The notes: generated from the letters alone by a model not told the origin. DNA of 41,323 bases from Escherichia coli (GCF_003334405.1 NZ_QOWM01000024.1), one strand, 5' to 3'; shown: positions 29,422 through 37,303, numbered from the stretch's first letter. Made by a program: numbers and translations.

Positions 29422-30903
29422 ATGAGAATTCACTCACCGTACCCCGCCAGTTGGGCGCTGGCACAACGAATTGGTTATCTCTATTCAGAGGGCGAGATTA
29501 TTTATCTCGCCGATACGCCATTCGAGCGGTTACTCGATATTCAACGTCAGGTTGGCCAGTGCCAGACCATGACCAGCTTGTCACAGGCTGATTTTGAAGC
29601 TCGGCTGGAAGCGGTATTCCATCAGAATACCGGTGAGTCGCAACAGATTGCGCAGGATATCGATCAATCCGTCGATCTTCTCTCGCTTTCGGAAGAGATG
29701 CCCGCAAATGAAGATCTCCTGAATGAAGATTCAGCGGCACCGGTTATCCGCTTGATCAATGCGATTTTGAGTGAGGCCATCAAAGAAACCGCCTCTGATA
29801 TCCACATTGAAACCTATGAAAAAACAATGTCGATCCGTTTTCGCATCGACGGCGTTTTGCGGACAATTTTACAGCCAAACAAAAAACTGGCGGCACTGCT
29901 TATCTCCCGAATTAAGGTCATGGCTCGTCTTGATATCGCCGAAAAACGTATTCCACAGGATGGAAGAATTAGTTTGCGTATCGGGCGACGTAACATAGAT
30001 GTCCGCGTATCCACACTGCCGTCCATCTATGGTGAACGCGCCGTACTCCGCCTGCTGGATAAAAACAGCCTCCAGCTTTCATTGAACAACCTGGGGATGA
30101 CGGCAGCGGATAAGCAGGATTTAGAAAATCTCATTCAGCTTCCGCACGGTATTATCCTGGTGACAGGGCCGACAGGCTCCGGTAAAAGCACCACGCTCTA
30201 CGCCATCCTTTCGGCGCTGAATACTCCCGGCCGCAATATTCTGACGGTAGAAGATCCCGTGGAATATGAGCTGGAAGGCATTGGGCAAACGCAGGTGAAT
30301 ACCCGTGTGGATATGTCTTTCGCTCGCGGCCTGCGCGCCATACTTCGCCAGGACCCGGATGTCGTCATGGTGGGGGAAATTCGTGATACAGAAACCGCGC
30401 AGATTGCGGTTCAGGCCTCGCTCACCGGCCATCTGGTACTCTCAACACTCCACACTAACAGTGCATCAGGCGCAGTGACCCGGCTCCGCGACATGGGCGT
30501 CGAATCATTCCTGCTTTCGTCTTCCCTGGCAGGGATTATCGCGCAACGTCTGGTTCGTCGCCTGTGTCCGCAATGCCGACAATTCACGCCCGTATCACCC
30601 CAACAAGCGCAGATGTTTAAATATCATCAGCTCGCGGTGACAACAATTGGCACTCCCGTAGGCTGCCCTCATTGCCATCAATCCGGCTATCAGGGGCGCA
30701 TGGCGATCCACGAAATGATGGTGGTGACGCCGGAATTACGGGCCGCTATTCATGAAAATGTGGATGAACAAGCACTGGAGCGACTAGTCCGGCAACAACA
30801 CAAGGCCTTAATCAAAAATGGCCTGCAAAAAGTGATAAGCGGTGACACCTCCTGGGATGAGGTTATGCGCGTCGCCAGTGCCACGCTGGAGAGCGAAGCA
30901 TGA
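29422..30903 (+). CDS. gspE: type II secretion ATPase
   Basis: 493 aa, Walker [10 protein letters not shown], tetracysteine CPQC...CPHC motif. Confidence 0.92.
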
Positions 30904-32096
30904 ATTATCGCTATCGCGCCATGACCCAGGATGGTCAAAAATTGCAAGGGATCATTGATGCTAACGATGAACGTCAGGCACGACTGCGGCTGCGTGAAGA
31001 AGGGCTTTTCCTGCTGGATATTCGCCCCCAAAAAAGTTCGGGAGTAAAAACACGTCGCCCGAGGATCAGCCATAGTGAACTGACGCTTTTCACCCGGCAG
31101 TTGGCAACCTTAAGCGCAGCGGCATTACCCCTGGAAGAGAGCCTTGCCGTAATCGGTCAACAAAGCAGTAATAAACGACTGGGTGACGTGTTAAATCAGG
31201 TACGCAGCGCCATCCTTGAAGGGCATCCCCTTTCCGATGCATTACAGCATTTTCCCACGCTTTTCGATTCGCTCTATCGTACCCTGGTAAAAGCGGGCGA
31301 AAAGAGCGGGCTGCTGGCCCCGGTGTTGGAAAAGCTGGCTGATTACAATGAAAACCGGCAGAAAATCCGCAGCAAGCTCATTCAGTCACTGATCTACCCC
31401 TGTATGCTCACTACGGTGGCGATTGGGGTCGTGATTATTCTCCTCACTGCTGTCGTGCCCAAAATTACCGAACAGTTCGTGCATATGAAGCAGCAACTGC
31501 CGCTGAGTACACGCATTCTTTTAGGTCTGAGCGACACGTTGCAACGTACCGGCCCGACATTATTAGCGACAGTGTTTATTGTCGCTGTAGGTTTCTGGCT
31601 CTGGTTAAAACGCGGCAATAACCGCCACCGTTTTCATGCCATGTTGCTGCGCGTTGCGCTCATCGGCCCGCTGATTTGCGCCATTAACAGCGCACGCTAT
31701 CTCCGCACTTTAAGTATTTTGCAATCCAGCGGCGTCCCTCTGCTGGATGGGATGAATTTGTCCACCGAAAGCCTCAACAACCTCGAAATTCGCCAGCGTC
31801 TGGCAAATGCGGCAGAGAACGTTCGCCAGGGTAACAGCATTCATCTTTCGCTGGAACAAACCGCAATTTTCCCGCCGATGATGCTCTACATGGTGGCCTC
31901 TGGCGAAAAAAGCGGGCAGCTCGGCACATTAATGGTCAGAGCCGCAGATAACCAGGAGACACTCCAACAAAATCGGATCGCCTTAACGCTCTCCATCTTC
32001 GAGCCAGCACTCATTATTACGATGGCACTGATCGTCCTGTTTATTGTCGTGTCGGTACTCCAACCTCTTCTTCAACTTAACTCAATGATTAATTAA
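30900..32096 (+). CDS. gspF: type II secretion inner-membrane platform protein
   Basis: 398 aa polytopic GspF/PilC family; ATGA overlap with gspE. Confidence 0.9.
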
Positions 32097-32105
32097 GGAA
32101 AGCAT

Positions 32106-35004: not shown

Positions 35005-36168
35005 ATGCCTGAATCGTTGATGGTCATACGTTCTTCCTCGACGCTGCGTAAGCATTGGGAATGGATGACGTTCTCCGCAGATAGCGTATCTTCGGTACAT
35101 ACGCTCACGGACGATCTTCCGCTGGAGTCGCTGGCCGATCAGCCCGGTGCCGGAAATGTTCATCTTTTGATCCCACCAGAGGGCCTTTTATATCGTTCCC
35201 TCACGCTGCCCAACGCCAAATACAAACTCACCGCACAAACATTACAATGGCTGGCAGAGGAGACGTTACCCGACAACACCCAGGACTGGCACTGGACGGT
35301 TGTCGATAAACAAAACGAAAGTGTCGAGGTGATAGGCATTCAGTCGGAGAAACTCAGTCGCTATCTTGAGCGTTTACATACTGCCGGACTCAACGTGACG
35401 CGGGTTTTGCCAGATGGCTGCTATCTTCCCTGGGAAGTAGATAGCTGGACTCTGGTTAACCAGCAAACAAGCTGGCTCATTCGCAGTGCCGCACATGCCT
35501 TCAACGAACTGGATGAACACTGGTTACAGCATCTTGCTGCCCAGTTTCCGCCTGAGAATATGCTTTGTTATGGTGTAGTACCTCACGGCGTTGCAGCGGC
35601 CAATCCACTTATCCAGCATCCTGAAATACCATCACTGAGTTTGTATTCTGCCGATATTGCATTCCAGCGCTATGACATGCTGCATGGTATTTTTCGTAAA
35701 CAGAAAACTGTAAGCAAATCGGGAAAATGGCTCGCCCGCCTGGCAGTAAGCTGTCTCGTTCTCGCCATTCTTTCTTTTGTTGGCAGCCGGAGCATCGCGC
35801 TCTGGCATACGCTTAAGATTGAAGATCAACTTCAGCAACAACAGCAAGAAACCTGGCAACGTTATTTCCCGCAGATCAAACGCACCCACAATTTTCGTTT
35901 TTACTTTAAGCAGCAACTCGCTCAGCAATATCCTGAAGCTGTGCCGTTGCTCTATCATTTACAAACACTTCTGCTGGAACACCCTGAACTGCAGTTAATG
36001 GAGGCGAACTATAGCCAGAAGCAAAAGTCGCTGACCTTAAAAATGAGTGCTAAGAGTGAAGCTAATATCGATCGTTTCTGTGAGTTAACACAGTCCTGGC
36101 TTCCGATGGAAAAAACAGAAAAAGATCCGGTCAGTGGTGTATGGACAGTAAGGAACTCAGGGAAATGA
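35005..36168 (+). CDS. gspL: type II secretion inner-membrane protein L
   Basis: 387 aa from ATG 35005 (ORF track begins one codon earlier at GTG 35002); cytoplasmic domain, one TM, periplasmic domain. Confidence 0.85.
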   Translation: MPESLMVIRSSSTLRKHWEWMTFSADSVSSVHTLTDDLPLESLADQPGAGNVHLLIPPEGLLYRSLTLPNAKYKLTAQTLQWLAEETLPDNTQDWHWTVVDKQNESVEVIGIQSEKLSRYLERLHTAGLNVTRVLPDGCYLPWEVDSWTLVNQQTSWLIRSAAHAFNELDEHWLQHLAAQFPPENMLCYGVVPHGVAAANPLIQHPEIPSLSLYSADIAFQRYDMLHGIFRKQKTVSKSGKWLARLAVSCLVLAILSFVGSRSIALWHTLKIEDQLQQQQQETWQRYFPQIKRTHNFRFYFKQQLAQQYPEAVPLLYHLQTLLLEHPELQLMEANYSQKQKSLTLKMSAKSEANIDRFCELTQSWLPMEKTEKDPVSGVWTVRNSGK

Positions 36169-36626
36169 TTAAATCATGGTGGGCAGAAAAATCCACATCG
36201 GAAAAACAGATCGTTGCGGCACTGGCGGTTCTCTCGCTCGGCGTTTTTTGTTGGCTTGGGGTGATAAAACCGATAGATACCTACATTGCAGAGCATCAGT
36301 CCCACGCGCAAAAAATTAAGAAGGACATCAAATGGATGCAGGATCAAGCGAGCACCCATGGTTTACTCGGTCATCCTGCGCTTACGCAGCCCATCAAAAA
36401 TATCCTTCTCGAGGAAGCAAAACGTGAGAATTTGGCTATCACGCTGGAAAACGGCCCGGACAATACTCTGACAATTCATCCTGTCACAGCTCCCCTCGAA
36501 AACGTCTCCCGCTGGCTCACTACGGCACAGGTAACATACGGTATTGTTATTGAAGACCTTCAGTTTACTCTTGCCGGAAACGAAGAGATCACCCTCAGGC
36601 ATTTGTCCTTCAGGGAGCAACAATAA
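36165..36626 (+). CDS. gspM: type II secretion inner-membrane protein M
   Basis: Translation MIKSWWAEKSTSEKQIVAALAVLSLGVFCWLGVI...; ATG 36165 in ATGA overlap with gspL stop gives 153 aa. Confidence 0.82.
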   Translation: MIKSWWAEKSTSEKQIVAALAVLSLGVFCWLGVIKPIDTYIAEHQSHAQKIKKDIKWMQDQASTHGLLGHPALTQPIKNILLEEAKRENLAITLENGPDNTLTIHPVTAPLENVSRWLTTAQVTYGIVIEDLQFTLAGNEEITLRHLSFREQQ

Positions 36627-37303
36627 TGACAATGCTACTGCCGCTCTTCATTCTGGTTGGTTTTATTGCAGGTTATTTTGTTAATGCCATCGCCTATCAC
36701 CTCTCGCCGTTGGAGGATAAAACGGCGTTAACGTTTCGCCAGGTATTGGTTCATTTCAGGCAAAAAAAATATGCCTGGCATGATACAGTGCCCCTGATAC
36801 TTTGTGTTGCTGCTGCTATCGCCTGCGCCCTGGCACCTTTCACGCCCATCGTGACTGGCGCACTCTTTCTCTATTTCTGTTTCGTACTCACGCTCAGTGT
36901 TATTGATTTTCGCACTCAGCTCCTGCCCGACAAACTCACCTTACCGCTGCTCTGGCTTGGCTTGGTATTTAATGCGCAGTATGGATTAATTGATTTACAT
37001 GATGCGGTTTACGGCGCGGTAGCGGGCTATGGGGTGCTGTGGTGTGTTTACTGGGGCGTCTGGTTAGTTTGTCACAAAGAGGGATTGGGCTACGGTGATT
37101 TCAAGCTACTGGCCGCTGCAGGCGCATGGTGTGGCTGGCAAACGTTGCCAATGATACTGCTGATTGCCTCGCTGGGTGGCATTGGTTACGCCATTGTTTC
37201 ACAACTTCTGCAACGCCGGACTATAACCACTATCGCATTCGGCCCGTGGCTTGCGCTCGGCAGCATGATAAACCTGGGGTATCTGGCCTGGATCTCTTAT
37301 TAA
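36626..37303 (+). CDS. gspO: prepilin peptidase / N-methyltransferase
   Basis: 225 aa polytopic membrane protein of the PilD/GspO family (GYGDFKLLAAAGAWCGW); 1-nt overlap with gspM. Confidence 0.88.
   Translation: MTMLLPLFILVGFIAGYFVNAIAYHLSPLEDKTALTFRQVLVHFRQKKYAWHDTVPLILCVAAAIACALAPFTPIVTGALFLYFCFVLTLSVIDFRTQLLPDKLTLPLLWLGLVFNAQYGLIDLHDAVYGAVAGYGVLWCVYWGVWLVCHKEGLGYGDFKLLAAAGAWCGWQTLPMILLIASLGGIGYAIVSQLLQRRTITTIAFGPWLALGSMINLGYLAWISY

Follow-up and report, generated by a model that had tools for sequence, protein, structure and literature searches.

Where the stop codon of one bacterial gene overlaps the start codon of the next, or lies close to it, a terminating ribosome can reinitiate at a start 1-8 nt away, assisted by an internal Shine-Dalgarno (SD) sequence (PMC6728339; PMC10666635; PMC12548453). 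Stop-to-start distances of -4, -1 and -8 nt, negative values denoting overlaps, are the three enriched spacing classes across prokaryotes (PMC12548453; PMC10666635), and in E. coli the subunits of heteromeric complexes are 4.5-fold over-represented among pairs at short distance (PMC10666635). The locus considered here is the annotated gspC-O type II secretion operon of Escherichia coli K-12, with its gene boundaries correctly called, as it occurs in a stretch of E. coli DNA of 41,323 nt (GCF_003334405.1 NZ_QOWM01000024.1; hereafter the window). Six of its junctions lie within -8 to about +6 nt, namely E/F (-4), H/I (-4), I/J (-8), J/K (-8), L/M (-4) and M/O (-1), and at all six the overlap probably couples translation of the two genes by termination-reinitiation. 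The closest described cases are the gene pairs of Huber et al. (PMC6728339; PMC10666635; reviewed by Brown and Wade, 2025, PMC12548453), which are likewise co-directional within one operon at -4, -1 or -8, mostly with an internal SD and mostly encoding subunits of one complex. In the 2023 dataset the K-12 gsp pairs appear as NGHB#3216-3226, at the same distances as here (PMC10666635), but they differ from the pairs examined experimentally in lying outside that set, in having an 8-nt overlap at two of the six junctions, and in that M/O is flagged as not belonging to a complex.

This junction layout is already known, having been catalogued pair by pair, and other type II secretion operons typically share it. 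For b3324-b3335, supplementary file 3 of Huber et al. (2023) gives the distances -17, 9, -4, 9, 7, -4, -8, -8, 14, -4 and -1, with every gsp pair except M/O flagged as complex subunits, and supplementary file 4 enters gspCDEFGHIJKLMO as a single operon (PMC10666635). The pan-prokaryote medians for pairs of COGs in the same source are -4 for both PulJ/PulK (range -4 to +2, n=291) and PulL/PulM (range -4 to -1, n=196), +4 for PulE/PulF and PulD/PulE, and +5.5 for PulK/PulL (PMC10666635). The overlaps described by an earlier, sequence-only reading of the window (ATGA at E/F, H/I and L/M, 8 nt at I/J and J/K, and 1 nt at M/O) proved exact to the base, and the starts and stops it gave for the gsp genes are identical to those in RefSeq/PGAP, whose features here comprise gspA, gspC-O, bfr, bfd, chiA and tuf. 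Over the gsp region the window matches E. coli K-12-type chromosomes at 100% identity, and the 5.7-kb gsp stretch is carried by 3155 of 5426 complete E. coli genomes. The canonical order C-D-E-F-G-H-I-J-K-L-M-O is kept, with all genes from gspC to gspO on the + strand and separated by gaps of no more than 14 nt; the remaining junctions are C/D (-17), D/E (+9), F/G (+9), G/H (+7) and K/L (+14). In the RefSeq annotation the genes E-F-G-H-I-J-K-L-M-O are preceded by gspA/gspC-D and followed by bfr-bfd-chiA.

Under the proposed mechanism, a ribosome terminating on the upstream gene would shift by 1-8 nt to the start codon that overlaps or adjoins the stop, whilst staying on the mRNA, with an internal SD assisting restart at five of the six sites. 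Synthesis of GspF would thereby be linked to that of GspE, that of GspI, GspJ and GspK to GspH, and that of GspM and GspO to GspL. The genes gspG, gspH, gspL and gspE could instead be set independently because they stand behind short gaps and, in all but gspH, have a clear SD of their own, something that would matter most for the abundant GspG. Predicted pairing with the anti-SD sequence amounts to -6.4 kcal/mol for gspF, -6.5 for gspJ, -4.6 for gspK, -6.1 for gspM, -7.4 for gspO and -2.9 for gspI, all weaker than the -8.4 from which PMC6728339 counts an SD as 'strong', and the weak SD of gspI suggests that this gene should depend most on upstream translation. Coupling at these junctions is plausible, and would probably serve matched output of GspH-I-J-K and of GspL-M.

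The overlap chain is denser than the genome average. Seven of the 11 gsp junctions overlap, compared with the ∼15% of co-directional pairs reported for most prokaryote groups (PMC6728339; binomial P = 3e-4), and six of 11 belong to the -8..+6 class, as do 24% of the unidirectional pairs in E. coli (PMC10666635; P = 0.027). A comparison is also offered by the S10, spc and alpha ribosomal-protein operons of the same window, which are polycistronic like gsp and serve an equimolar complex, but in which only three of 24 junctions overlap (rplD/rplW at -4, rplP/rpmC and rpmC/rpsQ at -1; Fisher P = 0.004 against gsp), most others being gaps of 3-40 nt. Translational coupling is well documented in the S10 and spc operons. 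That these operons are mostly non-overlapping implies that matched output does not require start/stop overlap. If a per-junction overlap probability of 0.3-0.5 is assumed, which is illustrative rather than a measured rate, the corresponding P is 0.02-0.27, and for the operon of a multi-subunit machine the chain is unremarkable. The alpha, spc and S10 operons occupy window positions 10699-24353 on the minus strand, with the Rfam Alpha_RBS element at 13522-13633; the Rfam scan of the window gave no match within the gsp region.

To place the K-12 junctions among those of other type II secretion operons, 80 loci were taken from the matches listed for GspG in a species-level genome collection, and their genes were identified by tblastn and open reading frame (ORF) walking. 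Fourteen of the 80 were dropped owing to a broken G-to-K ORF chain or a short contig, leaving 66 operons from 28 genera; 19 of these were Shewanella, and genus-weighted figures were similar. No close orthologs of the K-12 system occurred among the matches listed. Pseudopilin starts were set to the shortest leader of at least 5 residues, which is conservative and under-counts overlaps, and those of gspE, gspF and gspL to the position nearest the projected K-12 N-terminus, whilst GspM and GspN starts were the first of the ORF; GspM was checked by protein alignment, and the GspN figures are the least reliable. In this survey, overlaps were present in 70% of operons at H/I, 70% at I/J, 67% at J/K and 63% at L/M, where 95% of distances lay within -8..+6. 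Overlap frequencies at the other junctions were 29% at E/F (80% within -8..+6), 18% at G/H, 36% at K/L and 40% at M/N, the last depending on the GspN starts, and no operon overlapped at F/G (0/66; median gap 51 nt). Among genes with a single possible start, the overlap frequency was 82% for H/I, 100% for I/J and 74% for J/K.

The Pul, Out, Eps and Exe operons share the gene order of K-12 and its junction pattern, with H-I-J-K chained by short overlaps, L/M either overlapping or no more than 1 nt apart, and a genuine gap in front of gspG. The same can be seen within E. coli itself, in the chromosomal type II secretion system beta (T2SS-beta; H/I -4, I/J -4, J/K +2, K/L -4, L/M +1, F/G +16) and in a plasmid-borne etp-like system (H/I -4, I/J -4, J/K -1, L/M -8, F/G +26). 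Two differences were apparent: E/F is at -4 in the K-12 lineage and at -1 or +1 to +3 in other type II operons, and gspM is followed by gspO at a 1-nt overlap in K-12, whereas most surveyed operons have gspN after gspM. The survey, six syntenic orthologs and the two paralogous E. coli systems agree, and the tight junction pattern is therefore a conserved property of type II secretion operons and no peculiarity of K-12.

The six syntenic orthologs, found through exact-protein look-ups (that for P0081 gave no match), share the gspA ... bfr context and have minor pseudopilin identities of 30-58%; a degraded operon, L083, was left out of the set. Their Pfam content comprises T2SSC, Secretin, T2SSE, T2SSF, T2SSG, GspH, T2SSI, T2SSJ, T2SSK, T2SSL, T2SSM and Peptidase_A24. 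All six K-12 overlaps remain overlaps in each of the six, with F/G at +9 to +11 and E/F at -4 throughout. The exact register does vary, however, with I/J at -4, -8 or -14 and J/K at -4 in all six, such that K-12 has -8 at two junctions where its orthologs mostly have -4. L/M is conversely at -4 in K-12 and at -8 in five of six orthologs, and M/O is at -1, -4, -8 or -14 among K-12 and the orthologs. At L/M the string ATGATTAA gives -4 in K-12, where gspL stops at TGA, and -8 in orthologs L082, L084 and L088, where gspL stops at TAA. Both other frames meet a stop within the 8 nt of ATGAWTAA, so that an upstream gene struck by an indel close to its 3' end would switch register with no gap arising. 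This variation suggests that selection, if there is any, keeps the spacing tight rather than preserving a given motif, and the shifts fit selection for tight spacing or neutral stop capture alike; the absence of any overlap at F/G speaks against mere drift of the spacing.

The minor pseudopilins GspH-I-J-K form the tip/priming complex, and Korotkov and Hol are said to have found, in 2008, GspI-J-K at 1:1:1. GspE and GspL are 1:1 partners, but their genes are not adjacent. In the Pul system PulE:L:M:N was measured at 1:1:1:1, with PulC at 2 and PulL:PulM at about 1:1, and PulF did not co-purify (PMC6882859). The proposal in the sequence-only reading that the overlaps fix the stoichiometry of pseudopilus and platform components is thus apt for the GspH-I-J-K tip complex and for GspL-GspM, but overstated for E/F and M/O. 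A parallel is found in the fimT-pilW-pilX-pilV genes for the type IVa minor pilins of Vibrio cholerae, which encode homologous priming-complex pilins and partly overlap, and whose authors read the overlaps as coupling that reinforces a fixed stoichiometry (PMC13249403). Unlike gsp, these genes serve a pilus machine, and in that work expression levels were manipulated and coupling was assumed (PMC13249403).

Several observations weigh against coupling at all six gsp junctions. Whilst four of the five native E. coli pairs tested at -4 were strictly coupled, the fifth, bioBF, was uncoupled and initiates de novo (PMC6728339), and overlaps of -8 reinitiate less efficiently than those of -4 (PMC10666635). 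Start-region accessibility, calculated for all 12 starts from the ViennaRNA partition function in 140-nt context, did not differ between overlapped (mean 0.47) and non-overlapped (0.47) starts, and so there is no sign of the ribosome binding site occlusion thought to be needed for strict coupling. To these may be added the variable register among orthologs, the pairs E/F and M/O, which have no known equimolar partners (M/O joins a structural protein to an enzyme), and the silence of the operon in K-12 laboratory cultures (PMC5797941). Much of this would be expected if the overlaps were a neutral by-product of tight packing, with each cistron initiated de novo from its own SD and no ratios set. 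A lost stop or a frameshifting indel would then let the upstream frame run on to the next stop, often within the A-rich codons past the ATG (ATGA, ATGAWTAA), and the downstream N-terminus would stay constant whilst the register shifts freely, as seen with ATGATTAA at L/M and at C/D, which spans -17 to +4 among orthologs. A usable internal SD in five of the six downstream genes would allow such initiation. It is hard, however, for drift alone to keep the same junctions overlapping or tight over 28 genera with F/G never overlapping, and the enrichment of complex subunits at short spacings, the strict coupling of most tested -4 pairs and a gspI nearly devoid of SD in K-12 also speak for coupling, which makes the neutral explanation unlikely, if still one to be reckoned with.

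A stronger role for the overlaps than coupling appears more doubtful again. The conserved arrangement, with no overlap before the major pseudopilin, a short H-I-J-K chain and a fused L/M, could be read as a junction code, selected as a device by which the H-I-J-K priming complex and the L-M pairs are assembled co-translationally and in order. Were this so, breaking the overlaps at constant protein levels would impair secretion, and the -4 to -8 shift at I/J and J/K in the K-12 lineage would have tuned the chain towards lower output.

The sequence-only reading took 33057 and 36165 as the starts of gspI and gspM and named in-frame ATGs at 33018 and 36141 as alternatives; these exist and are the sole upstream in-frame candidates. 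Starts there would give overlaps of 43 nt and 28 nt, with the ATGA motifs incidental. Both ATGs are retained among E. coli lineages that differ by up to 3%, too small a divergence for this to be informative, and the start at 36141 has a predicted SD pairing of -5.3 kcal/mol and would give a GspM of 161 aa, equal in length to some Enterobacter-group homologs. The closest gspM orthologs, L082 (56% identical) and L086 (44%), however, carry an in-frame stop codon 15 nt before the homologous start (MIKSWW/VVKQWW), at a point that corresponds to the interval from 36141 to 36165, and four of the six orthologs have no upstream start whatever; in most aligned GspM homologs the conserved WW motif stands only a few residues from the N-terminus, as it does in K-12 GspM read from 36165. 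For gspI, none of the six orthologs has an ATG equivalent to 33018 and three lack any upstream in-frame start, whilst in every one of them a start codon precedes the G|M/F-(T/S/L)-LLE cleavage motif by 6-7 codons. From 33057, K-12 GspI begins MNKQSG|MTLLEVLLA, with the short basic leader ending in Gly, the hydrophobic stretch and the Glu at +5 of a type IV prepilin-like (class III) signal. Its 6-residue leader is the mode among 66 GspI homologs (minimal leader 4-15), compared with 19 residues from 33018, longer than any of these. RefSeq likewise takes the downstream starts, and an INRI-seq table (PMC9825163) lists no alternative initiation site for gspI or gspM, which is weak evidence, as its constructs reach only to -30 and 33018 falls outside. 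Initiation at either upstream ATG is consequently most improbable. Citing the ATGA overlaps in favour of the chosen starts, as had been done, is circular when taken alone; the choice itself is upheld by the independent ortholog evidence, and the check confirms the K-12 annotation of both genes. The same in vitro INRI-seq map (PMC9825163, supplementary file 6) contains an in-frame CTG 30 nt into gspJ (window ∼33457) and an out-of-frame ATG 100 nt into gspC (window ∼26761).

Table 1. Genes, overlapping junctions and rejected starts of the gsp operon, in window coordinates.
Feature	Position	Strand	Remarks
gspC	26661..27476	+	GTG start; 17-nt overlap with gspD (27460-27476)
gspD, secretin	27460..29412	+	PGAP start; longest ORF from 27448
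gspE, ATPase	29422..30903	+	
E/F junction, ATGA	30900..30903	+	4-nt overlap, read from sequence
gspF	30900..32096	+	ATG is the first in-frame start of the ORF
gspG, major pseudopilin	32106..32543	+	behind 9-nt gap; own AAGGAA SD
gspH, minor pseudopilin	32551..33060	+	
Alternative gspI start, ATG	33018..33020	+	in frame; rejected
H/I junction, ATGA	33057..33060	+	4-nt overlap, read from sequence
gspI, minor pseudopilin	33057..33434	+	leader MNKQSG|MTLLE; weak SD (-2.9 kcal/mol)
I/J junction, ATGATTAA	33427..33434	+	8-nt overlap, read from sequence
gspJ, minor pseudopilin	33427..34014	+	ATG is the first in-frame start of the ORF
J/K junction, ATGAATAA	34007..34014	+	8-nt overlap, read from sequence
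gspK, minor pseudopilin	34007..34990	+	ATG is the first in-frame start of the ORF
gspL	35005..36168	+	behind 14-nt gap; AAGGA SD; GTG at 35002 just before ATG 35005
Alternative gspM start, ATG	36141..36143	+	in frame; rejected
L/M junction, ATGA	36165..36168	+	4-nt overlap; wider string ATGATTAA closes both other frames
gspM	36165..36626	+	N-terminus MIKSWW aligns with conserved GspM N-termini
M/O junction, TAATG	36626	+	1-nt overlap, read from sequence
gspO, prepilin peptidase, 225 aa	36626..37303	+	overlapping ATG is the first in-frame start of the ORF; Peptidase_A24 confirmed

Some further features of the operon were observed (Table 1). The gspL gene has tandem in-frame starts, GTGATG (35002-35007), of which PGAP picks the ATG at 35005; the AAGGA lies 6-9 nt before both, which leaves the start ambiguous by one codon. 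The GTG start of gspC is without detectable SD pairing (+0.2 kcal/mol), and the gspC/gspD overlap of 17 nt from the PGAP start at 27460 would be 29 nt if gspD began at the ATG at 27448, a long overlap being shared only with the closest ortholog, as the others are at 0 to +4 nt. Another tight junction at the locus is that of gspA (25012-26481) and gspB (24591-25010), on the minus strand and one nt apart.

The E. coli GspO is without a segment of ∼29 residues that is found in all six syntenic orthologs (254-262 aa) and that holds both Cys-x-x-Cys motifs (GSHCxxC ... GRCRYC). Pfam detects only Peptidase_A24 in K-12 GspO, whilst the orthologs also have A24_N_bact. The part of prepilin peptidases associated with zinc binding and with support of N-methylation appears to have been lost in the E. 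coli lineage. Among the orthologs, L085 (7001-7807; Yokenella regensburgei) has gspG followed by gspI after a 3-nt gap with no gspH called, apparently after loss of the adaptor pseudopilin GspH in this lineage. The GspG of L083, on a contig of GCA_030409795.1 labelled Flavobacterium paronense, is 87% identical to that of E. coli, and its gsp operon is broken into many short ORFs, including gspD, gspE and gspF fragments; it is either a pseudogenised enterobacterial operon or the result of assembly contamination or mislabelling.

PMC5797941 describes the K-12 gsp genes as silenced by H-NS and only mildly induced by SlyA, and cites earlier work for the silencing and for the secretion of chitinase by the system. 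The gsp region is missing from ∼42% of complete E. coli genomes, IS2 or ISEc52 insertions lie within it in some strains, and in STEC388 only 75 bp of it are left, spanning the gspM/gspO junction. These absences, insertions and the remnant suggest that the silent operon is under ongoing decay in E. coli.

These findings would be of some practical use in re-engineering or expressing the cryptic gsp genes, such as to secrete proteins from laboratory E. coli; otherwise they offer little beyond quality control. Splitting H-I-J-K or L-M into separate expression units may alter their relative output, whilst gspG is naturally an independent translation unit. The gsp operon also follows the general rule by which stop and start codons are often shared between genes encoding partner subunits.

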